A stretch of 64,000 bases of DNA from Desulfatiglandales bacterium (GTDB taxonomy: Bacteria > Desulfobacterota > DSM-4660 > Desulfatiglandales > Desulfatiglandaceae): positions 7,008,001-7,072,000 of the forward strand of contig OY759599.1 of NCBI GenBank assembly GCA_963662465.1. Direction: 5' to 3'. Both the position numbers and the translations under genes were made by a program. Each line of letters opens with the position of its first letter. Position 1 is the first letter of the stretch. A model generated the notes under the pieces. The model ran no database searches. It saw only the letters and a program-made list of their open reading frames with translations, and was not told the origin of the DNA. Shown here in pieces: positions 2,599 through 45,734 of the stretch.

Positions 2599-2696
2599 TT
2601 CGACATTCCCTGTTCAACATTCGACATTAAATCAACCTGTTAGATTAAATACAGCCATTGTCTAAAAAATGTTGCTTTTTTGTATTGCACCCTAAG

Positions 2697-3079
2697 AGGA
2701 AGGGTCGAAAAGGCGCCTACTGGGAAGATCGCTATCATGCGACGGCGATAGAAACAAACAGACATTTGTCTCAGTGTCTTGTTTACATTGACCTCAATAT
2801 GGTTCGTGCAGGAGTCGTAGATCATCCGCCGGACCAAAACCAAGTATTGCAGTAGGCAGTGAATCCTTTGTCGCCGCTACGAAAGAAGCCTTTGGAAACA
2901 AAGGGGAGGGGCGGGAAATTATTGGGGGTGATGGGAGCTATGAACTCCGAGAGACAGCAGCGGCTTACAAGGGCGTTTTTGGGGATGAAAATGCTGCTCT
3001 AAGGGTTCAAAATGAGTATTTCTGGAAAGATTCTCATTGAAAATCAATAAGATGGTGCTTAAATTCTTGGTCCGACCCC
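2697..3079 (+). pseudogene. Remnant of a RAYT-B type transposase plus its 3' end module
   Basis: RKGAYWEDRYHATAIE...YIDLNMVRAGVV is homologous to 10215-10976; ends in GGTCCGACCCC (3069-3079). Confidence 0.8.
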
Positions 3080-3423
3080 AAAGCCCGCCCAGCAGGGCGA
3101 GCATGCCGGATAAACGTAACGATAAGGTGTAGAGTTCATAAAAGGTGAGAAACTCACTGAAAACTGCAAAAAGTCCGCAACGGACTTGATGCTGAATTGC
3201 GCAAAAAATTTTGGACATAGGGTAACTACCTGTTATTACAGGGTTTGCAGTTTTTTGAAGTTTTTTCTTGACAGGAGCATTATAGGATGTCCCCCATTAC
3301 GCATGTAATCCAAGGGGCGGAGCTGTATCAAAAGAAGCTATGGCAATGTGAAACAAACCCCATTAGACACACTGAGGTTCGACCCCAAGAGCATTACATT
3401 CCCATGCATCGTAGGAGGTAAAA

Positions 3424-3832: not shown

Positions 3833-4029
3833 AACCGCTGTTATTTGGAAAAACAAGCAAAACGCATAAGAGCATAGGACGTCCCCCATGATAAAAGTGC
3901 ATCGCAAATACAGAAAACCTCTCATATTCGTGAAAAGTGACAAGTAACCCCCGAACGCCCCCCCTGGCGCACCCGTAAAAATCCTGTAAAATCATGTAAA
4001 TCCTGTCTAAAAAAAACCACTAATAAATC

Positions 4030-4847: not shown

Positions 4848-5341
4848 TATGGATATTATGACATGGATCTTTTTATTTGGCGCCGCCATAGTGCTTGGTG
4901 CCCCTTTACTGGACGCGATCGATATCGAAGGCAAAGTCATTTCAGCTGACGTTGGACTTTTGCTAAATATTTGGTTTCTGGATCATCCGGCAAGACCGGC
5001 GTAGGAATAATGCGGATAATACCAAATAGTACATTGCTTAACATCCAAAGACTTCCAAGGCAAGAAACCTATCCGCGTGTATCTGCGAAAATCTGCATCC
5101 CAATAGAGAAAATGACAGAGCAATGGAACACGATGTTCAGCGGTATTTAACAAAGAAAGTTTGTCACGCTAGTCAACAACGTCCCCTAAGTCCCCTAAAA
5201 ACACCTATTCTTGGAACATAAACACTTCATAATCAATAACTTGGGCGACCCCACGACAAGCTGATACAATCAAAGCTCCCGAAATCGAAACCCAAAAAAA
5301 ACAATCCTGAGCATCCTGAAAATCCTGTCTAAACAAACTAA

Positions 5342-6424
5342 ATGCCTCGCCAACCAAGACTTGACGCTCCCGGCCTTCTTCAACACGTAATGGCGCGGGG
5401 AATAGAACGGCGAAAGATTTTCTTCGACGACAAAGATCGGGAGGCTTTCCTGGAAAGGTTCGCCGGCATCCTCGAAGAAACACAAACCCAGTGCTACGCC
5501 TGGGCCTTGATTCCGAATCATTTTCATCTCCTCTTACGAACAGGTCCTACTCCGCTCAGCAAGGTGATGCGCCGTCTTATGACTGGGTACGCCGTCACCT
5601 TCAACAAAAGACATAAGCGCGCAGGCCATCTCTTTCAGAACCGATATAAATCCGTTGTGTGCGAAGAAGACGCCTATCTTCTGGAACTCATTCGTTACAT
5701 CCATTTGAATCCATTAAGAGCCGGTTTGGTAAAGGATCTTCAAGAACTGGACAAATACCCCTGGGCCGGCCACAGCGCCATCCTTGGCAACCGCAAAAAT
5801 CCGCTTGTTCCACCCGAGGAACCCAACGAACCCAATAAACTCAAAGAACCCAACGAGCCGATGAAGTCTCTTGCTGAGAAGACCATCGAAGACGTCCTCC
5901 TGCATTTCAGTGAAACCGCAAAAGTCGCTCGCCGAAAATACCACGAATTTGTCGAAAAAGGCATCGATCAAGGCAGACGCTCCGAATTCCAAGGGGGCGG
6001 GCTTGTTCGAAGCGCCGGCGGGAAGAAAGCAGGGCTCCTGGGTAGATCGAAAGAAGAAAGAGAGAAGGGGGATACGAGGGTATTGGGGAGCGGCGATTTT
6101 GTGACTGAGGCGTTGAGGCAAGCGGGTGAAGAATGGGAGAAGAGTTACAGGGAGAAAATGCCATTAGAAGAACTGATGAAAACGGTCGCGACCCACTTCG
6201 AAGTAGAGGAAAGTGATTTGAAGTCTTCCAGTAAGAAAAAGCAAGTGGTTGAGGCAAAATCCGCATTCGGGTATCTTGCAATTAAGAAACTGGGGTATTC
6301 AGGACGGGAAGTTGGGAGTTTTTTGAATATGAGAAGTTACAGTGCAATCAGAAGGGCTCAGGAAGGGCAAAAAGTGGTTGACAACCGAGGAGATATGTGT
6401 AAAGTATTGAAAATCATGGAATAG
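5342..6424 (+). CDS. REP-associated tyrosine (Y1/HUH) transposase, RAYT-A, with C-terminal HTH-like extension
   Basis: MPRQPR, HVMARG, PNHFHLL (HUH), GHLFQNRYKS, YIHLNP (catalytic Tyr). Confidence 0.9.
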   Translation: MPRQPRLDAPGLLQHVMARGIERRKIFFDDKDREAFLERFAGILEETQTQCYAWALIPNHFHLLLRTGPTPLSKVMRRLMTGYAVTFNKRHKRAGHLFQNRYKSVVCEEDAYLLELIRYIHLNPLRAGLVKDLQELDKYPWAGHSAILGNRKNPLVPPEEPNEPNKLKEPNEPMKSLAEKTIEDVLLHFSETAKVARRKYHEFVEKGIDQGRRSEFQGGGLVRSAGGKKAGLLGRSKEEREKGDTRVLGSGDFVTEALRQAGEEWEKSYREKMPLEELMKTVATHFEVEESDLKSSSKKKQVVEAKSAFGYLAIKKLGYSGREVGSFLNMRSYSAIRRAQEGQKVVDNRGDMCKVLKIME

Positions 6425-6466
6425 TGGCAACGTCCCCCATACGCAGTGGCAACGTCCCCCATACGC
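6423..6466 (+). repeat. Junction motif A, tandem 22-bp duplication (AGTGGCAACGTCCCCCATACGC) at the RAYT-A stop
   Basis: CAACGTCC also at 5177, 7246, 7561, 7619, 13227, 15836, 15927, 21214, 22123, 22303, 22368, 28322, 31482, 53499, 53557. Confidence 0.9.
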
Positions 6467-7234: not shown

Positions 7235-7262
7235 TGGAATAGTGGCAACGTCCCCCATTACT

Positions 7263-7751: not shown

Positions 7752-9008
7752 ATGTATAAAAGGGATGCAGAACAGCTTCTTGTTGAATTGCTTGCCGACT
7801 TCCGTATTGTGTACCTTACCGGACCACGGCAATCCGGAAAGACCACACTTGCAAAAAGGCTTGCGGAGAAACTGGGGATGAAATATGTAACCCTGGATGA
7901 TCAGGCGGTTCTGGCAACAATAAATAATGACCCACATGGCTATATCCGCTCGCTGGCAGGACAGCAGATCGTTCTCGATGAATTTCAGTATGCGGAGGGA
8001 CTGATTCCGGCAATCAAGGAGGCTTCTGATGCATTGGTTGAGGGGGAGAGAGGTAAATTTCTGCTTACCGGATCAGCTGATATCTTTCGATCCGCAAAAA
8101 CACAGGAGGCATTACCGGGTCACCTGGCAAGAGTTGAACTGTATCCGCTCTCTTTGGCGGAAATCAAGGCGAATTCATTCAACCTGATTGACTATCTTGC
8201 TGAGGGGGGATTCAAGTCTATATCAAGACCATCACCGCCTCGTGATGAAATTGCCCAACTGTTGATTTGTGGAGGTTATCCGGAGGTACAAGATAAAAAA
8301 AACAGGCGGTCGCGTCAAACATGGTTCAAATCGTACATTGAAGGACGCCTTTTGAAGGATTTTGAAAGCTTGTACGCTGCTCGTGGGGATTATCGTTCCA
8401 AACTTTCGTCCCTGGTGACGCGTTTAGCCGGGTTAAGTGGTAATCTGTTGAAGAATGCGAGTATTGCAAATGACCTGGGACTCGATGATAAGCTGGTGAA
8501 ATCCTATGTGGAAATCCTGGAATTAATGTTTATCGTCAAACGTCTTCCCGCTTATGTCAAAAATGCGGCAAAACGAACTGTTATTGGTATGCCTAAAGTA
8601 CAGTTCGTCGATACCGGTCTCGCCTGTTACCTCCTGGGTCTGCGCCGGATCGAAGCGTTACGCCATTCACAATTTTATGGCGGGTTATTCGAAACTTATG
8701 TGTTTATGGAGTGTTGCAAACATAAGACCTGGGCCGAAGAAGATGTCAGGCTGTATCATTTTCGGGATAAACGGAAAAATGAAGTGGACCTGGTACTCGA
8801 GAAAAGTGATTCAAGGGTTATCGGAGTGGAGGTTAAAGCATCGGCAACAGTCAGAGAGAGTGATTTTAAGGGACTGATAAAACTATCTGATTATGCGGGG
8901 CAACATTTTCAGCATGGGGTTTTGTTGTATACCGGCAATGAAATCTTACCATTCAAGCAGAAGGACAGAGAGTTTCATGCCATTCCGTTTTCCATATTAG
9001 AGGGCTGA
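7752..9008 (+). CDS. AAA_14 + DUF4143 ATP-binding protein
   Basis: GPRQSGKT, LDEFQ, LLTGS, GGYPE, EVDLV..EVK motifs. Confidence 0.9.
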   Translation: MYKRDAEQLLVELLADFRIVYLTGPRQSGKTTLAKRLAEKLGMKYVTLDDQAVLATINNDPHGYIRSLAGQQIVLDEFQYAEGLIPAIKEASDALVEGERGKFLLTGSADIFRSAKTQEALPGHLARVELYPLSLAEIKANSFNLIDYLAEGGFKSISRPSPPRDEIAQLLICGGYPEVQDKKNRRSRQTWFKSYIEGRLLKDFESLYAARGDYRSKLSSLVTRLAGLSGNLLKNASIANDLGLDDKLVKSYVEILELMFIVKRLPAYVKNAAKRTVIGMPKVQFVDTGLACYLLGLRRIEALRHSQFYGGLFETYVFMECCKHKTWAEEDVRLYHFRDKRKNEVDLVLEKSDSRVIGVEVKASATVRESDFKGLIKLSDYAGQHFQHGVLLYTGNEILPFKQKDREFHAIPFSILEG

Positions 9009-9214
9009 GCAAAAAACCTCTGTGGCCTCAGCGCTCTTGGGGCTCACAAAATGTCTCATGTCAAGGGCTGACCCCGTTCCTAGGTGGTCTTGGTAGAATG
9101 TCCTCGTGTGTCGGCTTGGTGACAATGATTATACGACCATCGTTTGTGGTGCATGGCAGGCGGGTGTTCGATGTTCATCCCTATAGTTGCGTCCCCTAAA
9201 CACATAACCGAGAA

Positions 9215-9370
9215 TTGGAACTTTTTGAGAACTTCAAACCCTGCGATGGGGAACGCCATCGCCCCTACCTCATCGCCGAGGCCGGGGTCAATCATGAAGG
9301 GAGCATGGACATAGCCAGGCGCCTGATCGAGGAGGCCAAGGAAGGCGGGGCCGATGCCATCAAGTTTCAG
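9215..9370 (+). pseudogene. NeuB/SpsE N-acetylneuraminate synthase N-terminal fragment
   Basis: PYLIAEAGVNHEG...GADAIKFQ, cut just before GGTCTGACCCC (9381). Confidence 0.85.
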
Positions 9371-9619
9371 ATAAATCCTTGGTCTGACCCCAAAACCCTT
9401 TGAACATCGCTTGTTGTGATAATTAAGAGCTCAATCAATAATTCAGGCGCCCGTCTTCATTATCTGTCAAATGCATCGTTGGGGTTACCAGCAATCATCA
9501 AAAGCCTGCTCCTGATATTGCCGCATATATGCTTTCACGATATTTACGTCCCCCATTACAATATTTAGTTACAAAGTGCCAACGTTACCCCTTACACTTA
9601 ACATTACGTGAGGTATCCA

Positions 9620-9847
9620 ATGGAACCGAACAAAATCGCATCTGAAATAATGAAATTAAGTGTTCCTCAAAAGCTGATTCTGGCTCAGGACATCTGGGAT
9701 TCAATTGCCCTTGAAGGAGGTAATTTGCCTTTGCCGCAGTGGCAGAAACGCGAGCTTGAATGGAGATATGCCCAGTATAATCAAGGTGAAATGGGACTTC
9801 ATGACTGGCGTGAAGTGCATGAGGAACTTCGAAAAACAGATCTATGA
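9620..9847 (+). CDS. Addiction-module antitoxin
   Basis: LSVPQKLILAQDIWDSI...WQKREL pattern. Confidence 0.8.
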   Translation: MEPNKIASEIMKLSVPQKLILAQDIWDSIALEGGNLPLPQWQKRELEWRYAQYNQGEMGLHDWREVHEELRKTDL

Positions 9848-10125
9848 GACTCAGGTATTCTGATAGGGCCAAGGATGACTTGCGGATTGCCTTCAATTGG
9901 TACGAAGCCCAACGGCGCGGATTAGGACTTGACTTTTTGGACTGCGTTGAAGCGGCAATTGAGACAATCCAAGAGACGCCGAGGCTGTATGCGGAACACC
10001 ATCTTAACTTCAGGCGCGCGTTAGTGCGACGATTTCCTTTTTCGATTTTTTACACGATCGAAGAAACGGAGATAGTTTTACATGCTGTTTTTGACAATAG
10101 ACAAGATCCAGCTCGTTTGCCATAA
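9844..10125 (+). CDS. RelE/ParE toxin
   Basis: WYEAQRRGLGLDF...RRFPFSIFY...AVFDNRQDP. Confidence 0.85.
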   Translation: MRLRYSDRAKDDLRIAFNWYEAQRRGLGLDFLDCVEAAIETIQETPRLYAEHHLNFRRALVRRFPFSIFYTIEETEIVLHAVFDNRQDPARLP

Positions 10126-10214
10126 AGATAGCATTCCCAAAGAAACGCATAAGGGCATAGACGTTCCCATCATTCCACTATGTAACTGACGTTCCTCTTT
10201 ACACGTTGTTCTTG

Positions 10215-10976
10215 ATGCCCCGCGCCAACCGACATTTTATCCCCGGCTATATTTGGCATATCACCCATCGATGCCATAAGAAAGAGTTTCTTCTAAAATT
10301 TGACAAGGACAAAAGTCGCTGGTTATGGTGGCTATTTGAGGCGAAGAAGCGCTATGGAACGTGTATCTTGGATTACATGGTTACATCGAATCACATCCAT
10401 CTCTTGCTGTACGATATAGCTGATAGGGAATGCATTCCGAGAACAATTCAGCTGATTGCGGGCAGAACAGGGCAGGAATTCAACCAAAGAAAACGCCGTA
10501 AGGGCGCCTTTTGGGAAGACCGTTACCATGCGACTGCAGTTGAATCCCGTGAGCATTTAACCCAATGCATTTTATACATCGATCTCAATATGGTCCGAGC
10601 TGGAGTGGTGAGCCACCCATTGGAGTGGGGGCGTTTTAGCGGTTACAACGAAATTCAGAACCCTAAAGAGAGATACTCGCTCATTGATCACGCACAATTG
10701 GTGACTCTTCTCGGCAAGGAGGGCATAGATGAACTCATTGATTCGCACGCCACTTGGGTGGATGAAGCCGTGAATCAGGGAAACAAGCCACGTGAGGTCA
10801 AGTGGATGGAAAGCATCGCGGTTGGAAGCAAAGAGTTCGTGGAAAAGATCAAAGAAAAGCTGGGGGCCTTATTTCTGAGTCGTAAGGTGGAAGGGGAAGA
10901 AGGCCGGTATGAACTCCACGATCCACAACGCCCCTACAGGCTTACAGAGAATTCCTTTCCATGGCGGGATCTTTAG
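10215..10976 (+). CDS. REP-associated tyrosine (Y1/HUH) transposase, RAYT-B
   Basis: MPRANR, WHITHRC, TSNHIHLL (HUH), GAFWEDRY, YIDLNMVRA. Confidence 0.9.
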   Translation: MPRANRHFIPGYIWHITHRCHKKEFLLKFDKDKSRWLWWLFEAKKRYGTCILDYMVTSNHIHLLLYDIADRECIPRTIQLIAGRTGQEFNQRKRRKGAFWEDRYHATAVESREHLTQCILYIDLNMVRAGVVSHPLEWGRFSGYNEIQNPKERYSLIDHAQLVTLLGKEGIDELIDSHATWVDEAVNQGNKPREVKWMESIAVGSKEFVEKIKEKLGALFLSRKVEGEEGRYELHDPQRPYRLTENSFPWRDL

Positions 10977-11004
10977 CGAAAACTTTCAGCAGCTCTTTCT
11001 TAAA

Positions 11005-11104
11005 ACCCGCTTTTTAGGGGCAAAAAGGGGGTTTTAAGGCTCTAAAACAAGCTTCTTTTTGTGGTTATCGTAGTTATTACAAGTTGTTGCTGAGGTCCGA
11101 CCCC
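11005..11104 (+). repeat. RAYT-B 3' end module ending in motif B (GGTCCGACCCC)
   Basis: Related ~100-bp modules end at 3079, 12301, 12576, 21489, 23409; bare motif at 3376, 9065, 9381, 20568. Confidence 0.8.
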
Positions 11105-11361
11105 AAGAAAAATTTGCAAACCCCAAGAAAACAATAAAATTGAAATTCTCATCCGTCCCCCATTGCGCCAAAATTATTACAGAAAACATCCTAACCCCTG
11201 CGGCTTTCCGCTTCGGGTGCCTTTGTAATCCGGCTTGTCGAAGATGCCGAAATGCGGTGTCCCGTGAAATTGACGAAGTCAAGAGCGGAGCTCATTAGGA
11301 TAGCTTGCCCGATCCCAGCCCCCCAATGGATGCCCCCCTTATGATGTGTAAGCCCTAATGC

Positions 11362-11400
11362 TTGACAGCTTCCAAAACGATGTGTATACATGATGCATAT
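11362..11400 (+). promoter_or_regulatory. vapBC promoter/operator
   Basis: TTGACA-17 nt-TATACA with extended TG; overlapping palindromic TGTATACA and ATGCAT. Confidence 0.6.
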
Positions 11401-11422
11401 CCATTGCGCTGCAGGAGGTGCT

Positions 11423-11653
11423 ATGAATACAGCCAAAATCTTTAGGAGCGGAAATTCTCAGGCAGTACGCTTGCCAAAAGATTTCCAGTTTAATGTATCT
11501 GAAGTCGAGATTTATCGCAGGGGGGATGAGGTGGTCCTGCGAAAGAAGCTTCAGAATCTATCCAGGGTTTTTGACCTGCTAACCGACATGTCCGATGATT
11601 TCATGGAAGACGGTCGTAATCAGCCTCCCATGCAGGAGAGAGAACCGTTTTGA
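11423..11653 (+). CDS. vapB: VapB (AbrB/MazE-type) antitoxin
   Basis: AKIFRSGNSQAVRLPK. Confidence 0.9.
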   Translation: MNTAKIFRSGNSQAVRLPKDFQFNVSEVEIYRRGDEVVLRKKLQNLSRVFDLLTDMSDDFMEDGRNQPPMQEREPF

Positions 11654-12054
11654 TATATATGTTGGACACGGACATTTGCATTTACACGATCAAACGCAAA
11701 CCAAGCAGTGTTGTGAATCGACTTGAACAGCTTAAGCCTGGCGAACTTGCAATGTCTGCCATCACTTTTGCGGAGTTGGTGAATGGGGCAAAGAAAAGCA
11801 AGTATGTTGAAGCAAATATGGAGCGGCTCAATGCCTTGGGTGAATTGATCGACGTCCGACCGTTTGATAAACAGGCTGCCCTTTTTTACGGAAGTGTTCG
11901 CTCCAGCCTTGAGAAGAGAGGAGAAGTGATCGGCGGAAACGATCTCTTGATAGCGGCTCATGCACTAAGTCTCAACTGGACCCTGGTTACGAATAACGAA
12001 AAGGAATTCAGACGGGTTGAAGGATTGAGAGTTGAAAATTGGGTCGATGCATAA
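11650..12054 (+). CDS. vapC: VapC toxin
   Basis: YMLDTDICIY...DLLIAAHA...VTNNEKEF. Confidence 0.9.
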   Translation: MIYMLDTDICIYTIKRKPSSVVNRLEQLKPGELAMSAITFAELVNGAKKSKYVEANMERLNALGELIDVRPFDKQAALFYGSVRSSLEKRGEVIGGNDLLIAAHALSLNWTLVTNNEKEFRRVEGLRVENWVDA

Positions 12055-12576
12055 TCGTGTTGATTTACAAAAGAAAATCCAGTGAGTTAAGTCCAGAATC
12101 GTCTCTTGCTCCTTCGGTTTTGTGCGGTTTCTGTCATCTGTCAGCTGAACGCTGCGATCTGTTTTTCCGGCCCTTCGACCTCTGACTTCTGGTTCTTAAA
12201 GGCCTCTTTTTGACCCCCAAAAGGGGTGTTTAAGGTCCAGAAACCCCCTGTATTGTGGGGTAACATGCCGATATTAAGGGATTCAGCTTGGTCCGATCCC
12301 CAATCCAACCCCTGCCTTCCCCGTGAAACCTCTTTTGTATTTGTTTCACCGGAGCTTCATCGGGCTGCTAAAAAAGAGCAGTGGAATAGTAGCAGCGTTC
12401 CCCACGTCCCCCGTTGAACTAAATACCTGCCTATGGGAGGCAAACGCTCCGGATTCCTTTTCTCCGTTTTCTTAAAGGCGCCTTTTTGGGGTCAAAAAGC
12501 GTGTTTTAAGGTTGATTTTTGGGTTTTTTTTAGGCTTAACCTATTGAATAAATGGGAATGTTCCTGGTCCGACCCC

Positions 12577-12783
12577 GACCCTGCATCAGAGATTGCAAAA
12601 GCTCTTAAAAAGGCAGGCTTTCGGCTTGAGCGACAAAAGGGAAGCCACGCAAGATTTGAACATGAAGACGGACGAACAACAACTGTACCTATTCACGCGG
12701 GCCAAGATATCGGCAGAGGCCTTTTTAGAAAAATTCTTCGCGATATTGAAATGAGCTTCGACGAGTTTAGAGAATTTCTATAA
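12577..12783 (+). pseudogene. HicA toxin, 5'-truncated at motif B
   Basis: RQKGSH...TTVPIH...LFRKILRD begins right after GGTCCGACCCC. Confidence 0.8.
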
Positions 12784-13256
12784 TATCCAAGTGTCTATGG
12801 GAACATCGGAATTGGAAGAGTATGTTCACAACGTTCTCCATTGGCTATCCCCTCCGAAGGACTGTGTGCAGTAAAAATTCAGTTGCCTGAATTCTTACTG
12901 CGACAACAAGAAAAAAACAGTGGAATCCGTGTCATCCGCCGTGCCCCGTTGAACCAGGTCCCCTTTCAGGGTGTTCAACTGGGGTGCCAAAAAAAGACTA
13001 ACGACCTCCCTTATTAAGAGTCAAGCAAAGACTTGACCCTTATGTTGCGTGCCAAAATCTTGAGTTACTGAATTACAAATGGACGTCCCCCAGATTCCCT
13101 CAAGTTCAAGTATGATGAGTGCTTGGAAAAACGATGATATCACGGCAGAGGAGATTTTTGATGCCTGATATCGGCGCCCTTGCTTTGGTGAAACATGAAT
13201 ACAGCGATAAAATAGTGGAATAGTGGCAACGTCCCCCATTACACGGATGAACTGAT

Positions 13257-13805
13257 ATGAGCGAAATGGTAAAATTTGAAGAACTGCAAAACCTTATCAT
13301 CGAAATCAGGGAACAAAAGGTTTTGCTCGACGCTGATGTTGCTCAAATTTACGGTGTAGAAACAAGAGACATTAATAAAGCGGTTGCCAACAACCCTGAA
13401 AAATTTCCATCGGGTTATGTTTTTGAAGTCTCTAAAGAGGAAAAAGATGAACTGGTGGAAAATTTCCACCGGTTCAACCGACTGAAGCATTCCACCGTGA
13501 AACCGAAAGCCTTCCCGGAAAAAGGTTTGTACATGCTCGCAACGATCCTCAAGAGTCCGCAAGCGGTACGGGCGACGCTGGCAATTATTGAAACTTTTTC
13601 GAAGATGAGAAAGCTGTCAAGTAATATCAAAGCGCTTTCAAAAATCAGTGAAAAGGATGAGCAGCAGAGCCTTATGAAAAAGAGTGGTGAAATTATCGCT
13701 GAGCTCCTGGACGAAGATCTTGAAACATCGGAAACGGAAACATCCATAGAATTGAATTTTGCAGTCTTGAAGTTCAAGCACCTGGTGAAAAAGAAGAACA
13801 AATGA
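13257..13805 (+). CDS. ORF6N-domain protein
   Basis: VLLDADVAQIYGVET...N.EKFP...PKAF.EKGLYMLATILKS. Confidence 0.85.
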   Translation: MSEMVKFEELQNLIIEIREQKVLLDADVAQIYGVETRDINKAVANNPEKFPSGYVFEVSKEEKDELVENFHRFNRLKHSTVKPKAFPEKGLYMLATILKSPQAVRATLAIIETFSKMRKLSSNIKALSKISEKDEQQSLMKKSGEIIAELLDEDLETSETETSIELNFAVLKFKHLVKKKNK

Positions 13806-13918
13806 CAAAGGTCTGCCTAGATTCAATAGCCCTTTGTTTCGAAAATTTTGTCATTATGCTTTTGTAAAAAGCCCTTAAAAAAAATCCTGTAAAATCCTGT
13901 AAATCCTGTCTAAAAAAA

Positions 13919-14326: not shown

Positions 14327-14565
14327 AATCCTGTAAATCCTGTCTAAAAAAAAAGCCCAAAAGCAACCCGCAAATACCCAAAAAACCCTCAGACAGGATC
14401 AAAGAATCAACCAGAAAAAGAAACCCAAAAAAAATCCTGTAAAATCCTGTAAATCCTGTCTAAAAAAAATACAAAAAATTGTATCCAGTCAGAAACTGGG
14501 CACCTAAATTCTCACTGCAAAAAAAACCGTTGACATCTTCCCCGTCTTCGCCTAGTGTTCGCCCC

Positions 14566-15817: not shown

Positions 15818-16322
15818 ATAAAGCAGCAAAAGCACCAACGTCCCCCATTACATTACATAATCTGTATGCTTTTCTGTGAACTTCGTGCCTTTGTGGTTTG
15901 TTTTCAGTGGTAACGCAGTTAAGTAGCAACGTCCTTCATTCCCGACCTACGTTTTTTCTACATAGACTTTTTTCTTGACAGGGGTATTATAGGATCTTAT
16001 CGTTCGCGTTTTAAAAATAAGTTCTGCAAATTTTGCCGAGGAGGCAGGCAGCACTTACTTGGCGGAACAACATCTCCACGATAAAATACGATATCAGAGG
16101 CATTGGTAGTACATCCCCGGTAAGGATACAGGCCCATAAGGGGAACAGGAACGAGCGCCTTGATAGATTGATTCGAAATTGTCGTAATTCATAGCTATTA
16201 TTATTTTTTAATGGATTCAAAAACAATACGATAACATGCTGGAATAACGATGGACATTCACAGCTGTTTGTATTATGTTAGTTTCCCAACATTACAACCA
16301 CTTGAAATAACAGGGGAACTAT

Positions 16323-19300
16323 ATGAACCGACATGTGACGCATGTGTTCATTTTCGCATCAGTGTGTTTTTTGGTTTGGTTTTGCAGTTTTTCAAAGGTG
16401 CAGGCATCACCTGTTTCAGCAGGTACTGGAAATAATATAAATGCCAGCAATTCCCGCTTAGATTCTAAAGGCGCTAGGACAGTACCTTTTGGCATTTCCT
16501 TTTCGTAAAGCTTTACGTTGAATGAATAGCCTGAAAAGGCTTTTTTCTCCAATTTTTAAAATAAAACAGGAATTTTTTTGGCAATTCTCAGAAAAAGCTG
16601 GACTTTCAGATCAACTTGGCCGATGATTACTGCCTATGGGAATCAGAAGCCAAAAAGGAAGAAAAGAGAGAGGCAAGATTGGAGTTCGCAAGCATCTTAA
16701 TGCAGATGCAATTTTCAAGCGTCTGCATAAAGATTTTTCTGAAGTCTCTGACTGCCGTGAGGATCCCGATATTACTATTGCGGATGCCTTGATGTCCGGG
16801 TTTGCAATGTTTTCGCTCAAGGAGCCATCGTTGCTTGCCTTTGATGAAAGAAGAAAAACCGATAGTAATCTTGGGAACATATACCATATTGGAAAGATCC
16901 CATGTGACAGTACGATGCGCACCATTCTTGATGAAGTGCTCGCAGAAGAACTTCGGAAACCGTATAGGAATATCTTCTGGGAACTGCAAAGGGGAAAGGT
17001 GCTTGAACGTATGGTATTTTTCGAAGGTTGTTATCTTCTATCTTTGGATGGAACGGGTTTCTTCTCATCGAAGAAACTTTCCTCTGATAGTTGTTTGGTA
17101 AAAGTATCGAAAAAAACCGGCGAAAAAACCTATTATCAGCAGATGTTGGGGGCAGCAATTGTCCATCCGGATTTCAAAGAGGTCATTCCGCTTGCTCCGG
17201 AATTCATAGTCAAGCAGGATGGCCAAAGCAAGAACGACTGTGAGCGTAATGCCGCGAAACGTTTCTTGCAAAAGCTAAAAGAGGAGCATCCCCATCTGCC
17301 TATCATTATAACAGAGGACGCGTTAAGTTCGAATGCACCCCACATTGAAGAAATACAAAAGCAAAATTTTCATTATATTCTGGGAGTTAAAAAAGGAGAT
17401 CACCATTTCTTGTTTAATCACGTCGAACAAGCGCGGATAAATGGTGACGTCACTGAATTCGAATTGGTCGATAAAGAGGATCCGGAAAAAATACATCGTT
17501 TCCGATTTATTAACCAGGTACCTCTCAATGCCTCTAACAAGAATATGCTGGTTAACTTTCTGGAATATTGGGAAATTACACCGAAAAAAACAAAACATTT
17601 TAGTTGGGTGACAGATTTTTTAATAGGAAAGGACAATGCATACCAGCTAATGCGAGGCGGCCGTGCGAGATGGAAGATCGAAAATGAAACCTTCAATACT
17701 CTTAAGAACCAAGGATATCATTTTGAACACAACTACGGGCTCGGCAAGAAGAATCTGAGTGTTGTTTTTGCGATGCTCATGATGCTGGCATTCTTGGTGG
17801 ATCAAACTCAACAGCTTTGTTGCCCTCTATTTATAGCCGCATGGCATAAACTCGGCTCAAAAAGGGAATTGTGGGAACGGATGAGAGCTTTGTTTAGAGA
17901 TTTTGAATTCAAATCGATGAGGATGCTCTATGAAGCCCTCTATTATGGCGTAAAGTTTCAAGCGCCAGTTATTCTATATAACAGTGGTTAAATTTGTCAT
18001 GCCCAAGTTCGCATACAAAAATGCTCTCATTAATAAAAAACTGGAGATTCCGGAAATGGATATCTCTGCCCTAACTCGTGCTTTTATGCTCTTACTCTTG
18101 TCAAAGAAGCTCAACCTGCAAGAAATCGAGGGAGGTAATAGTGGATTTAATACAATTTTTCTGAAAAGGATCTGATCTCAGGGTTTGTTTTTGAAATATG
18201 TTTTTCAAACTCTGTGAGTAAATTCTTGACCGGGAATTGCTGTATAAATGCCGGTGCATCATCAAATCAACAAACTGGTCAATCTGAAAATCAACCCAGA
18301 CCTTTCGGTCAGAAGAATGATCGGCAGAAAATCCCAAAGCTTGAACGAAACAGGCTGGAAGAAGGTAAAAAATCAGCACCTGTAAGGAAACGAAAAAAAA
18401 AGAAAAAATCAAATAAAACGAAAACTGCCAAGAAAAAGCGTGAGGGAACTCTATCATCGGATGATGATGCCTCTCACATTGCAAACAAAAGGAAAAAGGT
18501 CAAAAAGATTAACGTTACAGCAGAAAGAGTTGACGATATACCCCTATTGATAAAGGCCATGGTGAAAATGGGTATACAAGAAGCTATAGACCAACACATC
18601 CCAGTTCAAAAGAACCAAAGAGATTTGAGCTGGGGATGGACGGCTGTTATATGGTTGGCATATATGTTATCGGAGGGAGACCATCGCAAAGTAGTCGTCC
18701 GGGAATATGTATCTGGAATGCGGCATACCTTAATCGAATTAACAGGATTGATAATCTCCGAAAATGATTTCACAGACGATCGTTTAGCGAATCTTGCCAG
18801 GTATTTAAGCGATAACGATATTTGGAGCAAAGTTGAAGAGAGAATAAGTGGCAATACGATTGAAGCATATGAGTTGCCGGAAGAAACTGTCAGGGTTGAT
18901 GCTACGACTGTATCCGGCTACCACAAAACAGTTGAAGGTGGGATATTCCAATTTGGTGTTAGTAAAGACGACCCCAATAGACCGCAAATAAAAATCATGA
19001 CGGGTTCGCTGGATCCTCTTGGGATGCCGTTAGCCACGGATGTTGTTCCAGGGCAAATGGCCGATGACAAATTGTATGCACCTATCATAAGTCGCATTCA
19101 CTCTATGCTCCAGAAACAAGGTGTCCTTTATGTGGGCGATTGCAAACTGAGTTCTCTTGAAAATCGTTTACACATTAAGGAAAAAGCGGAAGGACATTAC
19201 TTATGTCCATTGCCTAATACTGGGAAAACCCCAGAATATATGGAGAAATGGATAGATGAAGGAAATTTGAAAGACAAAAAGAACGAGTTGATAAAGTACA

Positions 19301-20229: not shown

Positions 20230-20613
20230 TAAAATATTATCGTCATAGTCCTTACAGGTTGTCACAATTGAAATACAGATTTTACGACAATTTATATGAT
20301 TGTTGGAGATATGGAACGATGGTGTTTTACGCACGATCCATTCCATTTTCTGCCCTATTGTGTTGTTCCAATATTCGACGTGTGTTGTTTTTCAGGCTTT
20401 ACTAACCCATGGATGCATGTTGCTCAAAAAGACTCCTGGTAGGCTTTCCGGAAATAACTTTTCCCCCTGCCAAGAGAGGTACCCTCTACCAGATTTCGAA
20501 ATTAATCGAAGTGCAAATTTAAAACGCGAACGATAAGTAGGATGTCCCCTATTACGGGGTTTTCCATGGTCCGACCCCAATCCACCATTGTCTGAACCGG
20601 CAAGGAGTTTGAA

Positions 20614-21139: not shown

Positions 21140-21572
21140 CCCCAGCGCAACTCTGCTTTTTTGTGAACTTCGTGCCTTTGTGGTTTGTTTTCAGCGGTAA
21201 CGCAGTTAAGTAGCAACGTCCCCCATTTCTCTATCTTATTTATCACTCAATAACATCATTTTCAATCAATTTTGCAAGCCTCATGTGTTATATACATAAC
21301 ACATGAATTTGACCTTGTCCGGGACAATCTTTTCCTCCTATTATTTGTGAAGTTGCCCCTCTGGCCGCTTCACACATTAAACCCTGAAAACTTGGTTTTT
21401 TAGTGCGAAATGTAAGGTTTAAGGGCAAAAATGAGGCTTCTTTTGGGAAGTTCAGTAAGTAATTCGACGAGTTGCTGAGGTTCGACCCCAATACCTTCCA
21501 AAAGTCCCCCATAACATTGTCCCTTTACAATTAAATTACCTCAGTATTCACATTAAAAGCGGGGTACGCGAA

Positions 21573-22250: not shown

Positions 22251-22387
22251 CCTATGAAAAAAATCCTAAAAATCCTGTCTAAAAATAAAGCAACAAAAGT
22301 GCCAACGTCCCCCATTACCCTCAATTGAGGAGATATGTGGGAGATATCGAGAATAGTGGAATAGTGGCAACGTCCCCCATTACACAG

Positions 22388-22526
22388 GTTTAAGGTGTAA
22401 GGTGTAAGGTGTAAGGTGTAGGGTGTAGAGGGGGTAGGAAAAAAGGTATAAGGCATAGGGTTTAAGGTATAAGGTATAAGGCGAACCCCGCACCTTGTTC
22501 CCTACACCTTAAACCTTAAACCTTAA
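22388..22526. repeat. 7-mer tandem repeats (AAGGTGT/AAGGTAT) with inverted partner (ACCTTAA)
   Basis: Read directly. Confidence 0.85.
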
Positions 22527-22708: not shown

Positions 22709-23242
22709 TTGTTAATTGAGAATTTAAAGGACATGCTCGTTGAGCTGCGTGGCCAAAGTGTTTTGCTCGATAGCGATGTTGCCGAAATATACGGTATTGA
22801 GACAAAACGAGTCAATGAGGCAGCAAAAAATAATCCTGATAAATTTCCGCGTGATTACATGTTTGAGGTCAGCGAAGGGGAGTTTTCGGATTTGCGGTCG
22901 AAATTTTCGACCACAAAATTTGCAAAGACAAGAGCCTTACCGAAAGCCTTCACTGAAAAAGGTTTGTACATGATTGCTACGATATTGAAAAGTAAACAGG
23001 CTACAGAAGCGACGTTTGCAATCATTGAAACTTTTTCAAAAATCAGACAGCTATCAAGAAACATTCAGGAGCTATCGATTGTTCAAGATAAAGCGGATCA
23101 GAAAGCACTCATGCAGAAAAGTGGCGAGATTATCACTGAACTCCTGGATGACGACCTGCAAACAACCGACACAGAAACATCGATAGAACTGAACTTCGCC
23201 GTTTTGAAGTTCAAGCACGCGATAAAGAAGAAGAAAAAATGA
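22709..23242 (+). CDS. ORF6N-domain protein (paralog of 13257; start uncertain)
   Basis: VLLDSDVAEIYG...PKAFTEKGLYM; shared C-terminal SIELNFAVLKFKH. Confidence 0.8.
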   Translation: MLIENLKDMLVELRGQSVLLDSDVAEIYGIETKRVNEAAKNNPDKFPRDYMFEVSEGEFSDLRSKFSTTKFAKTRALPKAFTEKGLYMIATILKSKQATEATFAIIETFSKIRQLSRNIQELSIVQDKADQKALMQKSGEIITELLDDDLQTTDTETSIELNFAVLKFKHAIKKKKK

Positions 23243-23551
23243 GAAATATCGAATATGGGATTGCCTGTGCACGCTCTGCACGAACATCCCCAAGTCTATA
23301 TTTTCTTAAAAGCCCCTTTTTGCCCCAAAAAGGGAGTTTTAAGGCCTAAAATGGGGCCTTTTTTTCCATCTATTGTAGTTATTACAATGGGTTGCTGAGG
23401 TCCGACCCCAAGAGCTAGCGAAAAAAGTAATTAATCCAGTCATATAAATGATTTTCCTTTATGGAAGTCAAGGGGCTGAGCTGTATCAGCGCATCGGTAT
23501 TTTCAAAGGAAGAAGGGGAGTTAGGGGAATAACCTTACAAACCTTCCAACG

Positions 23552-28580: not shown

Positions 28581-28703
28581 AATCCTGTTAATCCTGTCTA
28601 AAAAAAATACAAAAAATTGTATCCAGTCAGAAAATGGATGCGCAAATTCTCACTGCAAAAAAAACCATTGACATCTTCACCGTCTTCGCCTAGTGTTCGC
28701 CCC

Positions 28704-30219: not shown

Positions 30220-31461
30220 ATGCCCCGCCAACCAAGACTTGACGCTCCAGGCCTCCTCCAACACGTCATGCCGGCTCCGTTCAATTCCGCAGGACAGCGT
30301 AGCGTATTTAACGGGGGCCCGGGGAATAGAACGACGAAAGATCTTCCTCGATGACAAGGATCGCGAGTCTTTCCTGGAAAGGTTCGCCAATATCCTTGAA
30401 GAAACCCAAACGCAATGCTACGCTTGGGCCTTGATTCCAAATCACTTCCATCTTCTTTTACGAACAGGCCCTACCCCACTCAGCAAGGTCATGCGCCGCT
30501 TAATGACCGGATACGCCGTGACCTTCAACAAAAGACATAAACGTTCCGGCCATCTCTTCCAAAACCGACCTGCCCGACATCGGCTTCGCCTTCAGGCGAG
30601 GCGGGCGGGTACAAATCCGTTGTGTGCGAGGAAGACACCTATCTCCTGGAACTGGTCCGCTACATTCACTTGAATCCGCTACGGGCGAGCCTGGTTCAGA
30701 ATCTCCAAGAGCTCGACAAATACCCCTGGACCGGCCACAGCGCCATCATAGGCCGACGAAAAAACCCCCTAATACCAGAGGTCAGCGATCAGAAGTCGGA
30801 AGTCAGCAGCCAAAAAACACCCAGAGCCCCCTCCGTCGCAGACGGATTGCCTTTTTCCCTTTCGTCCGGAAAGGGAAAAAAACAACAAAATAATCCTGAT
30901 AATCCTGTAAATCCTGTCAAAGAAAAAAAGCTGTTAGCCGAAAAGACCATCGAAGATACCCTCCTCCATTTCGCCGAAACCAAAAGAGCCGCTATAAAAA
31001 AGTATCGAGAATTCGTGGAAAAAGGGATCAAACAGGGTACCCGCGAAGATCTTCAAGGAGGCGGCCTTGTCAGGAGCGCCGGTGGAGATGCGGCAGGCCT
31101 TCTCGGGCGTAAAGCAGAAGAACGGGAGAAGGGAGACGCGAGGATTTTGGGGAGTGGTGATTTTGTTGAGACAACCCTTCACCAGTCTGAAAAATTGCTT
31201 GAAAGGAAATATGGACCCAAGAAAGCGATTGAAGATTTGATAAAGGATGTTTCAGAGGTTTTCGGAGTATCTCCTGAGCTGATTTGTTCAGGGAGCAGAA
31301 AGCCTAAAATCTCTGATGCCCGAGCTATTGTAGCACATATGGCGGTTGAGGAAACGGACCACAAGGCAACGGATGTAGCGAAACATCTTGGAATTAAGCA
31401 AACAAGCGTTCTACAATCGGTGAAGAAGGGGAAGGTTCTGTGTAATAGAGTAGGGCTATAA
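30220..31461 (+). pseudogene. RAYT-A paralog disrupted by two mini-insertions (30271-30316, 30569-30609)
   Basis: Homologous to 5342-6424; motif A follows at 31482. Confidence 0.9.
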
Positions 31462-31503
31462 GCGTAAACTAGTGAAACAAGCAACGTCCCCCACCCCATT
31501 ACG

Positions 31504-32088
31504 TTCGGTGCCACCCATCATGGCCAAAAATCCTGCGGCCTTTCCACCATCGGCTGCACCTCCTTCTTCCCGTCCAAACCCCTGGGCTGCTACGGCGACG
31601 GCGGCGCCGTCTTCACACACGACGACACCCTGGCCGACAAAATGCGCCAGATCCGCGTTCACGGCCAAAAAGCCAAACACCAGCACCCCCTGGTGGGTAT
31701 TAACGGCCGCCTCGACACAATTCAGGCAGCCATCCTTCTCGAAAAAATCGACCTCTTCCCCGAAGAATGCCGTCTCCGCTGGGAAGCGGGTCAACGGTAT
31801 AATGAGCTCCTGACGGGTATCCCTGGAATTCAGGTTCCAGCGGTTGCTGAAGGAAATGATTCGGTTTATGCCCAATACACCATGCTGACAAAAGACCGTG
31901 AAATGCTATCGAATGCTCTGAAGGCCGAAAGCATCCCGTCTGTTGCCTACTATGCCGTGCCTCTTCATCTCCAAGGCGTATTTTCAGATTTGGGTCATAA
32001 AGCGGGAGACTTCCCTGTGAGTGAAAAGGTTGCTTCACAGTGCTTGAGTTTACCGATGCATCCATATGCTTTTGCAGAGAAAGAATAA
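31504..32088 (+). pseudogene. DegT/WbpE-like aminotransferase, 5'-truncated at motif A
   Basis: SFFPSKPLGCYGDGG...GINGRLDTIQAA...LSLPMHP. Confidence 0.9.
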
Positions 32089-32749: not shown

Positions 32750-35700
32750 ATGACGCCTGAAATCCACCACCTAGGAGCAAAAGACTGCGTAACCGGTTCA
32801 TGCCACCTGATGCAGACAGCATCCGGCGTGAACATCCTCGTGGACTGCGGCAAGGCATATGGTCGTGACCCAGAACTCCCCTTCAACCAGTTTCCTGTTC
32901 AACCCGGCGAGATCGACTACCTGTTTCTGACCCACGCCCACATCGATCACATCGGCAGGACGCCAGACCTGATCGATGCCGGATTCCAGGGCGAGATCAT
33001 CTGCACTCACGCCACCAAAGCCCTGTTGATTCCCATGCTCCATGATGCCATGTCGTTTTCAGATAGAACCGGCAAAGAAATCCACCGCATGGAAGGTCTT
33101 ATTGATGAACTGTCATGGGGATTTGAACTTCATGAAACGTTTTCCCTTAAACAGGGGATCACATTCAAGCTGGGCAATGCCGGCCACATCCTGGGATCAT
33201 GTTTTATCCGCTTTGAAGTCCCCAATGACACTTCCATAACCCAAAACCCAAAACTCAAAACCAAAAACCGCTGTTCCATCGTTTTCTCAGGAGACCTTGG
33301 ATGCACAAACACCCCCATCCTGCCGGACCCTGACCCGCCCGATGCCTGTGATCTTCTGGTGATGGAATCCACTTATGGAGATAGAAACCATACCGGCCGA
33401 GAAGACCGGGTTCACGCTTTGGAAAGATTGCTTCATAAAGCCCTTGAGGACAAAGGGATTGTTTATATTCCCGCGTTTTCCCTTGGGAGAACCCAGGAGC
33501 TGCTTTATGAGCTGGACCGGATCGGAACAAAGGTTCCGGTGTTTGTGGATTCTCCCCTTGGCCTTAAAATTACAAAAATTTATTCAAATCTTGAAGCGTT
33601 TTGGGATAAAGAAGCAAAGGCTCTCAAGGCAAAGGGCGACCATCCCATTGATTTTAAAAATCTTTATGCCGTGGAGAGATACCGGGATCATCAAAAGCTG
33701 CTGGATATCAAAGGCCCTGCCATCATCATAGCGGGTAGCGGCATGTGTACGGGCGGGCGTATTGTGGATCATCTGGAACGCATAAGTCTAAATGTTGTGG
33801 GGTTTACTCTAACATATTGAAATTATTTCATCTGTTAAACGGTTCAGAATCAATATCCTAATCAAAGCGCATTTCGTGAGGCCAAACATTTTTTCCTGAA
33901 TTCGCCTTAGCGGAAAAAAGTTAGGGACTTTTTTTGATAAGTGTGCATAATCATAGTGCAACAGTCTATGTTAAATTAGAGAGGTTGCACATGATTAATA
34001 ATATTAAGAGAGCTTTGACAATGTTGGACAAAGCTCAAAACAGACTTGCAAGACAATGTTATTACGATCCAAAACAGTATCCTGAGATTTTCTTTGAAAT
34101 TGAGAAATGCATTAATGCCATCAGATCATGGATCAATGAAAGGGAGATGTTTCAATCATTGCAATATTTTTATGTAACATTGTCTGCTCTTATTGATGAA
34201 TTTGGTAGGTTAATAAGTCAATTATGGGATATTTGTAAGCCAATAAAAGGGAAAAAAAGCATTCCAAAAACACAACGGGATCGACAGAAAATTAGAATCT
34301 TTTATTCAATTCGTTCAATGATAAGTAATATTACTAAAAAATTGAATAATGTAAAAAGTCGTGATAGTACAATCAGTATTGCATTTGAGATAGGGATGTT
34401 AAAATCTTTTGATAAATCCATAATCGAAAATGTAAAAAAGAAAATGGAAGACCTTGTTTCTAAACGAGGAAATCAAACATATATCTTTCCTTATAATAAC
34501 ACCGAAAGCTATCATGCTCTCGTAAAAGATAGTAAGAAGTTTCGCATTGAAGTATTAGATAAACTCGATAAATATGATCACCACACAGGCCATAATTCAA
34601 CATGTTCTGGACCTAAAGAATATATTTTATCTGGTTTCCGCGGGAATCCTCGAAAAACAATAATGAATGGAGGAGAACAACAGACATTCCCAATCCGCAT
34701 GATACAATGCCGGAAGTGCAAACAAAAGTTCTCTCTTGTTCCCAGCTTTCTCCCAAGGGAAAAGAATTTTGGTATAGAGATTATTGGGCACGTATTTCGG
34801 AATATGTACCGTTTTAATGCGAGCATTCAAGGAGCCATCGAAAGCCTTAAAATTATTGGCAAAAAAAGTGTCAAAAGCAAACAGACCATCTTGAACTGGA
34901 ATCGATGGGCAGGAACACTTCATCCTGCAACAATACTAACAAGAGCAGGAGTGAAAGGCTCAGGATATCTACAGGAAGATGAGGGCTTTGAAAAAGAACC
35001 AAATTTAAGAACTTATTCTGTAGTTATGGTCGATCCTGAAAATTTATTAGTATGGCACTCCGATTATGTTGATCATGTTGATGAAGAAAACCTGTGCGGT
35101 TCATTTGAGGATTTTTTGCAAAAAATCGACTTCAAAATCCTTGGTGTAACAAAAGATAAGTGGAAAGCCTCAACCAATGCTATCAAGACCGTATTCCATA
35201 ACATTTGGGTCGGATATTGCCATCGTCATTGTTTGAAAAACTTCTACGATGCACTATCAAAATATCAAAAAGAATCAAAATGTACCGACCAAGAAGTGGA
35301 CAAGCTTTATAAAAAATTTAAGAAAGTTTTGAAAACATCCACATCTAAAGTTAACTTGGAAGTAAAGATTAAGGCATTAGATGACGATGCATTTTCTCAT
35401 CCATTACTAAAAAAGAGGGTAGTAGAATTAAAAGAAAATGCCACTCATTATACCTCTCATAAAAATAGAAATGGGATAAAACAAACAACCTCCATTGTTG
35501 ACAATTATTTAAAAGGAATCAAACGTAAACTAAAACAAATTGAGAGTTTTCGAGATAAGAAATGGGCAAGTCTTTTCTTTCGAGCACATGCGACTATCAG
35601 GAATTTTGTCCCATTTTTACCTGGCGCAAAAAATGCTCATAAAAGTCCCTTTGAATTAGCCAACGGCCAAACATTTGACTTACCTTGGATTCAAGTTATG

Positions 35701-36071: not shown

Positions 36072-36334
36072 CCTTATGTTGCGAGTTTCCCTAACTGCCT
36101 AAAGATATTGACATTTCGATATCTTGTTCAGGAACTGATGAAGTCCTTGCAATATTAGCATGTTAACCCATTTAATAGCTTTTCCGAAAAGTATTTCGCA
36201 ACATAATAATAGACGAAAAACGTTGATGTTCATATCGGGAGATTCGTTTTTGGATCATCAAACAGCGATCCATATTCGATCTGTCCGCAGCGAGCATTAC
36301 TGCGCATTCATTCTCAATAGATCGACTGTAGTGC

Positions 36335-45294: not shown

Positions 45295-45322
45295 TTGGAC
45301 TCCTCCCGGAAAATATAAAAGC

Positions 45323-45625: not shown

Positions 45626-45734
45626 GGTGTCTCCTTTCAAAAACATGGTTTTCCGGGTTAAATACCCGCTTTATGCACGGAAAACGCGCACAAGGTGTTT
45701 ATAAATCCCACATTTCCAGAAGAAAGCCTATAAA

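Follow-up and report, generated by a model that had tools for sequence, protein, structure and literature searches.

A candidate gene-distal terminal repeat of a RAYT-like transposase element and its stray copies in an island of toxin-antitoxin genes

The stretch at positions 11005-11104 of a 64-kb piece of a Desulfatiglandales genome (hereafter the window, i.e., the whole stretch of DNA that was analyzed) lies directly behind the gene for RAYT-B, a RAYT-like transposase of the Y1/HUH type, and we consider it probable (roughly 0.7, a value that takes in the mechanism proposed below and the present state of the region) that we are dealing with the gene-distal terminal repeat of a mobile unit centred on such a transposase. 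Although RAYT-like enzymes with terminal inverted repeats (TIRs) are very common, the names TIRYT and TIRtron are rarely used in the literature that we searched. What the present analysis adds is (i) a fixed anatomy of the element ends, consisting of a palindrome, a 55-nucleotide (nt) spacer and an 11-nt terminal motif, which is kept from Desulfobacterota to Gammaproteobacteria, Nitrospirota and anammox bacteria; (ii) a concrete substrate for a cleavage assay; and (iii) a hot spot of short duplications at the outer edge of the ends, which may be an indirect in vivo sign that the ends are still being cut. Within the window, stray copies of the repeat mark seams in a patchwork island of toxin-antitoxin genes.

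Copies and anatomy of the module in the window

When the window was searched for GGTYCGACCCC, allowing at most one mismatch, 11 matches were obtained, nine of them on the + strand, compared with 1.32 ± 1.32 in 100 shuffled sequences, none of which reached 11. A loose hairpin pattern (TTAAA..TTTT..AAAA..TTYAAGG) was found at exactly six + strand sites, and the motif follows each of them at a distance of 50-65 nt. The six co-oriented modules thus defined are about 110 nt long, end at 3079, 11104, 12300, 12576, 21489 and 23409, and share the same build, namely a 17-base-pair (bp) imperfect palindrome, a spacer of about 55 nt and the terminal motif GGTCCGACCCC, with two terminal subtypes (..GTTGCTGA-GGTCCGACCCC and ..CTT-GGTCCGACCCC). 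Their alignment spans 142 columns at a mean column identity of 66%. An earlier note on this DNA had described a module of about 100 bp at these six ends, and the hairpin and motif found at all of them, the excess of the motif and the alignment bear this out. Two of its positions had to be corrected: the module behind RAYT-B starts at about 10997-10999 rather than at 11005, which clips the 5' arm of the hairpin, and the copy placed at 12301 ends at 12300. While an nhmmer profile built from the six copies detected no further full-length module in the window, three hairpin-less short ends, comprising only the last 15-20 nt of the module, are present on the + strand (ending at 3386, 9391 and 20578). 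The nine ends all point in the same direction as the island's genes. The features concerned are the following:

10215..10976, + strand: RAYT-B gene, 253 amino acids, Y1/HUH transposase-like (Pfam Y1_Tnp, E 9.4e-9)
10997..11104, + strand: module adjoining RAYT-B (nhmmer 10997-11105; covariance model 121.9 bits)
10999-11038, + strand: hairpin of this module, 17-nt arms with one mismatch, 6-nt loop
~11080-11104, + strand: terminal box of this module, motif at 11094-11104
11100..11131, + strand: duplication spanning the element end, with copies of ACCCCAAGAAAA at 11100-11111 and 11120-11131
2694..3031, + strand: decayed RAYT-B copy (tblastn E 7e-20 and 2.6e-5)
2962..3079, + strand: module behind the decayed copy, hairpin degraded (alignment, nhmmer, covariance model)
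12193..12300, + strand: solo module 140 nt downstream of a VapB/VapC (MazE-like/PIN) pair, motif variant GGTCCGATCCC (hairpin pattern, alignment, nhmmer)
12441..12576, + strand: solo module with about 30-45 nt of RAYT-B 3' coding tail, terminal GACCC(C) tandemly doubled
21382..21489, + strand: solo module with degraded hairpin, motif variant GGTTCGACCCC (hairpin pattern, alignment, nhmmer)
23303..23409, + strand: solo module 62 nt downstream of an ORF6N-domain gene (22709-23242)
3372..3386, + strand: short end (CTGAGGTTCGACCCC), 38 nt ahead of a HicB-like (UPF0150) gene that has no hicA
9372..9391, + strand: short end that shares 18 of 20 nt with the terminus of the 3079 module and is fused to an N-terminal fragment of a NeuB-family gene (9215-9380)
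20558..20578, + strand: short end directly behind an A-type signal (..CCCCTATTAC; see below), resembling the NaphS2 termini ..TTCATGrTCCGACCCC

As the earlier note had stated, the module follows both RAYT-B and a remnant of it: the decayed copy stands directly ahead of the 3079 module. In this copy, residues 91-135 are still recognizable at 76% identity and residues 200-252 at 33% (tblastn), the C-terminal coding region crosses the hairpin, as it does in relatives of 263 amino acids, and the DNA is 78-91% identical (blastn) to positions 1342-1900 and 5559-6117 of a locus from strain NaphS2 (L001). The copies ending at 12300, 12576, 21489 and 23409 had been said to occur without a transposase, and none of them is accompanied by a working gene; however, the 12576 copy, which is 77-78% identical (blastn) to L001 3757-3890 and 5307-5441, keeps a tail of RAYT-B coding sequence, and a solo module of NaphS2 also retains about 30-45 nt of it. 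The solos ending at 12300, 21489 and 23409 start at the hairpin foot, and beside these three a tblastn search for coding remnants at E ≤ 10 returned only chance-level matches; the last of them is 75% identical (blastn) to a solo module at 125-234 of L002, the closest relative contig. Since two of the gene-less copies (3079 and 12576) carry RAYT-B coding remnants, we regard these two as relics of whole RAYT-B copies and not as separately laid signals.

Association with the RAYT-B family and conservation of the ends

The RAYT-B family is very large, a protein search returning at least 8000 candidates at E ≤ 0.001. For the comparison of flanks, 79 loci were taken from the best 80 of 613 matched stretches (one genome per species), 603 of which encode a RAYT-B relative; the loci belong to Desulfobacterota, Nitrospirota, anammox bacteria, Gammaproteobacteria and other lineages. 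The core motif GG[TC]CCGACCC, with at most one mismatch, was counted up to 260 nt downstream on the gene strand and, inverted, up to 300 nt upstream, and the denominators given are the loci with enough flanking sequence. The motif lies just downstream of the gene in 65 of 73 loci and, inverted, upstream of it in 61 of 74, mostly 106-130 nt from the start codon, with 51 of 68 loci having it on both flanks; elsewhere in these loci the background is 73 matches in 641,702 nt, or 0.11 per kb. Thus, the co-occurrence of the motif with RAYT-B homologues, which the earlier note had proposed as a check, is confirmed.

Furthermore, both the nhmmer profile and a covariance model were built from the six window modules only, and because this window-only profile matches both gene flanks of the relatives over its full length, we conclude that the module is the TIR, about 110 bp long, of a widespread element. 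The covariance model gave 127 matches at E ≤ 0.001. Outside the window, 114 module matches of at least 90 nt were obtained, gene 3' ends accounting for 50 of them, 5' ends (inverted) for 41 and other places for 23. At position 3 of the motif, where either T or C is found, the left and right ends of an element agree in 53 of 55 loci (permutation p < 1e-4). The designation as an end module of RAYT-B was therefore sound as to what the module belongs to, but incomplete, as most relatives carry it, inverted, at both ends. Gene-less inverted pairs that resemble miniature elements were found in five loci (L005, L012, L029, L059 and L073), and several single copies in other loci.

The position of the repeat relative to the coding region differs within the family. 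In the 263-residue relatives, the right repeat, including its hairpin, extends into the sequence that codes for the C-terminus. In the clade to which the window belongs together with the loci of NaphS2 (L001) and L002, the open reading frame (ORF) ends at the hairpin foot, and a left repeat was not found. The NaphS2 relative (262 amino acids) terminates at a TAA within the hairpin foot; RAYT-B of the window stops at a TAG (10974-10976), and nine codons on, an in-frame TAA (11001-11003) lies inside the foot of its hairpin. RAYT-B of the window has either lost its left copy or never had one.

RAYT-B is a Y1 HUH protein, as judged from its Pfam match, the invariant HUH and tyrosine columns and its fold match. 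In an alignment with 16 relatives, the HUH motif (NHIH) and the tyrosine of YIDLNM (Y121) are invariant, and RAYT-B is intact in every invariant column. Its AlphaFold model (mean pLDDT 72.5, pTM 0.77) has as best fold match in the PDB the E. coli TnpA-REP structure 4er8 (E 5.3e-6, TM 0.64 on the target), followed by TnpA of IS608 and ISDra2. At the sequence level, RAYT-B alone had no match among PDB sequences at E ≤ 0.01. Close relatives on plasmids were not found among the 16 plasmid records that match RAYT-B, all of which are below 60% identity (best 33%).

The palindrome is part of the minimum-energy DNA fold in four of the six window copies. Across 127 copies, 81.6% of paired cells are formed, compared with 75.5 ± 0.5% in shuffles and 40-60% in slid controls, and 183 cells show double changes, compared with 99.7 ± 7.8 in shuffles. 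The outer pairs (CTTA/TAAG and TTTT/AAAA) show next to no variation. The conserved structure is the local hairpin only, not the whole module.

Similarity between copies ends at the motif, and no target-site duplication was evident at the element flanks of the 79 loci. In the first 40 nt outside the end, however, a repeated 7-mer is present in 30 of 65 right flanks and 21 of 61 left flanks, as opposed to 7/123, 4/118, 2/115 and 5/112 in control windows 60-400 nt further out and 15/395 in random windows. In-register tandem copies are most frequent 0-3 nt inward of the outer edge, where they occur at 22-26 of 65 right ends, while other offsets give 5-9 of 65; the peak is weaker at left ends (6-9 of 61). 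Short, noisy tandem duplications are thus found at about 40% of right ends and at fewer left ends, compared with 2-6% of control windows. As this stutter is also present in complete or isolate genomes, such as those of Desulfosarcina alkanivorans and Desulfobulbus rhabdoformis, it is no assembly artefact of metagenome bins. In the window, two of the nine ends have an end-anchored duplication, ACCCCAAGAAAA occurring twice at 11104 and GACCC(C) twice at 12576 (12566-12582). The sequence pattern suggests that the edge duplications are the scar of repeated nicking and resealing at the outer edge.

Comparison with known elements

RAYT-like genes flanked by TIRs have been named TIRtrons and their enzymes TIRYTs (TIR-associated tyrosine transposases); some but not all of these TIRs share the sequence GGGGWSAS, TIRs may overlap the gene, and copies occur singly, as dimers or in groups (Di Nocera et al. 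2013, PMC3733652). Most TIRYTs fall into subclass 2.1 (Quentin et al. 2018, PMC6006769), the equivalent of Group 1 in Bertels et al. 2017 (PMC5581495). According to PMC6006769, no REP-like sequence was found for subclasses 2.1 and 2.3, and no repeat structure for the largest subclass. By comparison with the motifs in Table 1 of that paper, those of RAYT-B (NHIH, WE and YIDLNM) appear nearest to these two subclasses.

The element described here is of the TIRtron kind, and may or may not be among the 26 published TIRYT examples (PMC3733652). As in TIRtrons, a RAYT-like Y1 gene lies within TIRs, and not among GTAG REPs, in 51 of 68 relatives, though not at the RAYT-B of the window itself, the repeats can overlap the gene ends, and repeat copies occur elsewhere, i.e., five more modules and three short ends in the window and five inverted gene-less pairs plus singles in the relatives. 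The outer motif likewise starts with GGGG[AT][CG]. However, the outer 8 nt here, GGGGTCGG, match GGGGWSAS at only seven of eight positions, position 7 being a G instead of the consensus A, and every one of the 62 left and 66 right ends has this G. The present repeat also differs in being long (about 110 nt) with a conserved subterminal palindrome, in accompanying a tyrosine motif YIDLNM and not Y...NP, and, in the window, in that the gene is one-ended and the gene-less copies are single and co-oriented. When four motif strings were searched in the literature, none of the matches listed concerned bacterial repeats, and among the matches listed for tandem duplications at the flanks of RAYT genes none was on this subject.

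With REPtrons, exemplified by E. coli TnpA-REP with its REP/BIME sequences (4er8, the best fold match to the RAYT-B model), the element has in common that inverted hairpin-bearing repeats flank the gene and that gene-less copies lie elsewhere. Unlike REPs, the module has no conserved GT[AG]G at the hairpin foot, where every intact copy has TTCTTAAA (GTAG is seen in just two of the six window copies, and there in the spacer), and it is three to four times longer. A canonical REPtron combines one copy of the gene with tens to hundreds of repeats dispersed over the genome; the copies counted here come from 64 kb of this genome. RAYT-B scores below the cut-off of the NCBIfam model REP_Tyr_transpos (NF047646; 60.6 versus 80 bits), and a profile of its family matched only 4er8 among PDB sequences, at a marginal E of 0.14.

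Insertion sequences (IS) of the IS200/IS605 family (IS608, ISDra2) share with the element the HUH/tyrosine fold, subterminal imperfect palindromes, the lack of an obvious target-site duplication and a strong strand polarity. Elements of the IS608 type lack inverted repeats at their ends and are cut 10-19 nt away from the hairpins. The ends of the B element, in contrast, are inverted repeats of each other. Furthermore, tnpB is absent here, and the proteins have YIDLNM and 253-263 amino acids with a C-terminal extension, as opposed to a Y...Q motif and a core-only protein of about 150 amino acids (Y...Q being the tyrosine motif of subclass 1.1 in Table 1 of PMC6006769).

Proposed mechanism, alternatives and the surrounding island

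In the mechanism that we propose, the end comprises two conserved parts, a subterminal imperfect palindrome, whose 5' foot carries the ancestral stop codon of the transposase, and, about 55 nt on, a terminal box ending in GGTCCGACCCC. By analogy with other Y1 enzymes, we infer that RAYT-B would recognize the palindrome, probably as a hairpin on single-stranded DNA, and would then nick and rejoin a single strand at the outer border of the terminal box, the expected cut lying 0-3 nt inside the outer edge of GGTCCGACCC(C). Since the window RAYT-B has one end only, it is probably not an autonomous insertion sequence. The five other copies are single ends, of which at least two, and possibly all, are leftovers of former RAYT-B copies. 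Together with the three short ends (15-20 nt), they coincide with seams of the cassette island, among them those of two cut genes, a pattern that fits end-anchored rearrangements such as adjacent deletions or joins.

The first of the cut genes belongs to the NeuB family. Residues 13-53 of the ORF at 9215-9403 align to residues 25-65 of the 385-residue SpsE (1vli, E 3.8e-8); the gene breaks off after some 55 codons, and no similarity extends beyond the point at which the final 20 nt of a module (9372-9391) set in, in agreement with the statement that NeuB is cut just before the motif at 9381. The second gene abuts the outer edge of the 12576 module:

12577..12783, + strand: hicA without a start codon of its own (Pfam HicA_toxin, E 1.9e-21)

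This gene had been described as beginning mid-gene. Its start codon is indeed lost, the only in-frame ATG being at 12433, upstream of the module, but "mid-gene" overstates the damage, since the HicA domain is complete at profile positions 2-57 of 58 and only the start codon and a few residues are missing. The frame is open from ATG 12433 through the whole 12576 module into hicA, giving an ORF of 116 amino acids (12433-12783). Comparable seams exist in NaphS2, where a solo module abuts a 5'-truncated RAYT gene and a 600-nt segment is flanked by two copies of a short end plus its flank. L001 941-6117, from this cultured strain, is a second island of the same kind as that of the window: within 5 kb, and all in one orientation, it holds three RAYT-B-family genes (one in a complete two-ended element at 941-1900, one that has only a right end and one truncated at its 5' end), a PIN toxin-antitoxin pair accompanied by a solo module, and a short end that recurs along with its flank.

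Several observations weigh against this interpretation. The inverted left copy at the RAYT-B of the window was not found by motif search, nhmmer or the covariance model, so that the two-ended layout is absent there, and the 79 loci sampled are the best-scoring of at least 603 RAYT-B relatives. With respect to the hairpin, whole-module folding energies are no better than those of shuffles (z -2.4 to +0.5), two of the six window hairpins are degraded, and the central four or five stem pairs are variable, being formed in about 55-70% of copies. The 127-copy alignment was fitted to the covariance model and hence leans toward structure, and the covariation of the palindrome would fit a dimer bound to double-stranded DNA as well. 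The cut sites of IS608, at 10-19 nt from the hairpin, are far closer than the 55-nt gap between hairpin and terminus here, so that the IS608 mechanism may not transfer. Finally, seven of the nine window ends have no end-anchored duplication, and the edge duplications could stem from replication slippage or from repair unrelated to the enzyme.

A serious alternative, although the odds are in our view against it, is that the gene-less copies and short ends are nothing but inert debris of RAYT-B insertions, since deleted or overwritten (e.g., by IS or by A-type units, which outnumber them), with the enzyme having no present role in the array. The decayed RAYT-B ahead of the 3079 copy, the coding tails of about 30-45 nt at the 12576 copy and a NaphS2 solo, the two degraded hairpins, the abundance of IS copies and gene fragments in the region and the seven ends that lack an anchored duplication are all in line with such debris. 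However, three solos (12300, 21489 and 23409) begin at the hairpin foot without any coding remnant, which is not expected from random deletions, RAYT-B is intact in all invariant columns, all nine ends have one orientation, and genes are cut exactly at ends.

It is also conceivable, but doubtful, that the co-oriented single ends are integron-like sites of an HUH-driven cassette system, in which RAYT-B would cut the same strand at two successive ends, producing a single-stranded circle of a cassette plus its end that is re-inserted after another end. If single co-oriented ends were indeed junctions, this would represent a second, HUH-based route to arrays of defence and toxin-antitoxin cassettes. 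Modules and short ends are all co-oriented with the genes; RAYT genes without a left end directly follow another right end in L015 and do so at greater distance in L001, L002 and L045; a PIN toxin-antitoxin pair adjoins a B end in both NaphS2 and the window, with different neighbours; and the 600-nt NaphS2 segment is bracketed by two copies of a short end with its flank. Conversely, no cassette with the same B-end boundaries is common to the window and the 79 loci, the similarity being only at the gene level (73-83%, with just 73% for the shared PIN pair), near-identical duplications within the window terminate at A-type signals or within genes and not at B ends, gene-less copies elsewhere are mostly inverted pairs (five pairs), and a co-oriented end lies upstream in only four of 13 loci that lack a left repeat.

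The A-type signal just mentioned, ..GGCAACGTCCCCCATTAC, lies across or immediately behind the stop codon of each of the two RAYT-A genes in the window:

5342-6424: RAYT-A gene, A-type signal at 6410-6443 (+ strand)
30220-31461: broken RAYT-A copy, A-type signal at 31463-31506 (+ strand)
7248-7261, 9546-9559, 13229-13242, 15838-15851, 22370-22383, 53501-53514, + strand: examples of more than 20 further A-type signals, all on the + strand

The relation of this signal to RAYT-A, at the gene 3' end, mirrors that of the B module to RAYT-B, and the outer bases are similar, the reverse complement of the A-type signal (GGGGACG) resembling the B end (GGGGTCG). In L002, four A-type signals lie between cassettes, one of them touching the start of RAYT-B. 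The earlier note had proposed two RAYT clades acting on the same array, each with its own junction signal; the pairing of signal and gene 3' end stands for both, but two of the five gene-less B copies are relics of genes, not separate signals. On the sequence patterns, it is plausible that two RAYT clades may work on the same array. We think it improbable that RAYT-A and RAYT-B, each with its own end signal, feed one integron-like array, a reading in which the micro-duplications at the edge (about 40% of relatives) would be the scar of a nick, a short extension and resealing. Directly behind the A-type signal at 22370-22383, positions 22384-22520 form a long stutter of 8-9-nt units (ggtgtaagg.., ggtataagg.., accttaaacc..), which suggests that the edge phenomenon also occurs at the ends of the other RAYT.

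A role of the module as a transcription terminator or RNA-stabilizing element of the upstream genes is very unlikely. The modules do lie downstream of + strand genes and have a stem between A and T runs, and REPs have been reported to act in these ways (PMC3733652); however, a terminator scan flagged no module hairpin, its six sites within 9000-13500 all being elsewhere (5.6 ± 2.5 in shuffles), there was no Rfam match (nor a tRNA) in the window, and neither the inverted upstream copy in 61 of 74 relatives nor the terminal box 55 nt away would be explained. Lastly, we reject as hardly credible the idea of an attC-like site of a tyrosine recombinase in a chromosomal integron, for which the array of small co-oriented cassettes, many of them toxin-antitoxin pairs, between structured repeats and six tyrosine recombinase ORFs at 36335-45384 might speak, since no integron integrase is encoded within the window (the best recombinase scores 69.1 bits with the NCBIfam model integrase_gron, the cut-off being 265), no inverse copy of the terminal motif is present at the module's other end, i.e., it lacks an inverse core, and it is tied to an HUH enzyme, 65 of 73 loci having it next to a Y1 transposase gene.

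Yet another repeat, the third, consists of AATCCTGTnAATCCTGTC and a subsequent run of A. It occurs in about 20 copies, almost always on the + strand and typically 5-60 nt upstream of start codons, including that of RAYT-A, and may mark the left end of the A-type units or serve in their expression:

3990-4007, 5312-5329, 13893-13910, 14327-14344, 28581-28598, 57628-57645: examples of the third repeat

Fragments in the island include a NeuB N-terminus, the C-terminal half of a DegT protein, pieces of a UDP-glucose dehydrogenase and an oxidoreductase-acetyltransferase (polysaccharide-gene fragments at 9215-9380, 31642-32088, 60948-61427, 61648-61986 and 57664-59304), and it appears that a gene cluster for polysaccharide synthesis was invaded and fragmented by the cassettes. 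The six tyrosine recombinase ORFs are Xer-like, and some of them are split. A block that holds these ORFs along with repeated IS copies (33779-52500 and 62649-64000) interrupts the cassette island; the IS repeats of the window are 33779-35784, repeated at 49874-51879, 16445-18242, repeated at 54766-56563, and 40232-41583, which recurs inverted at 62649-64000.

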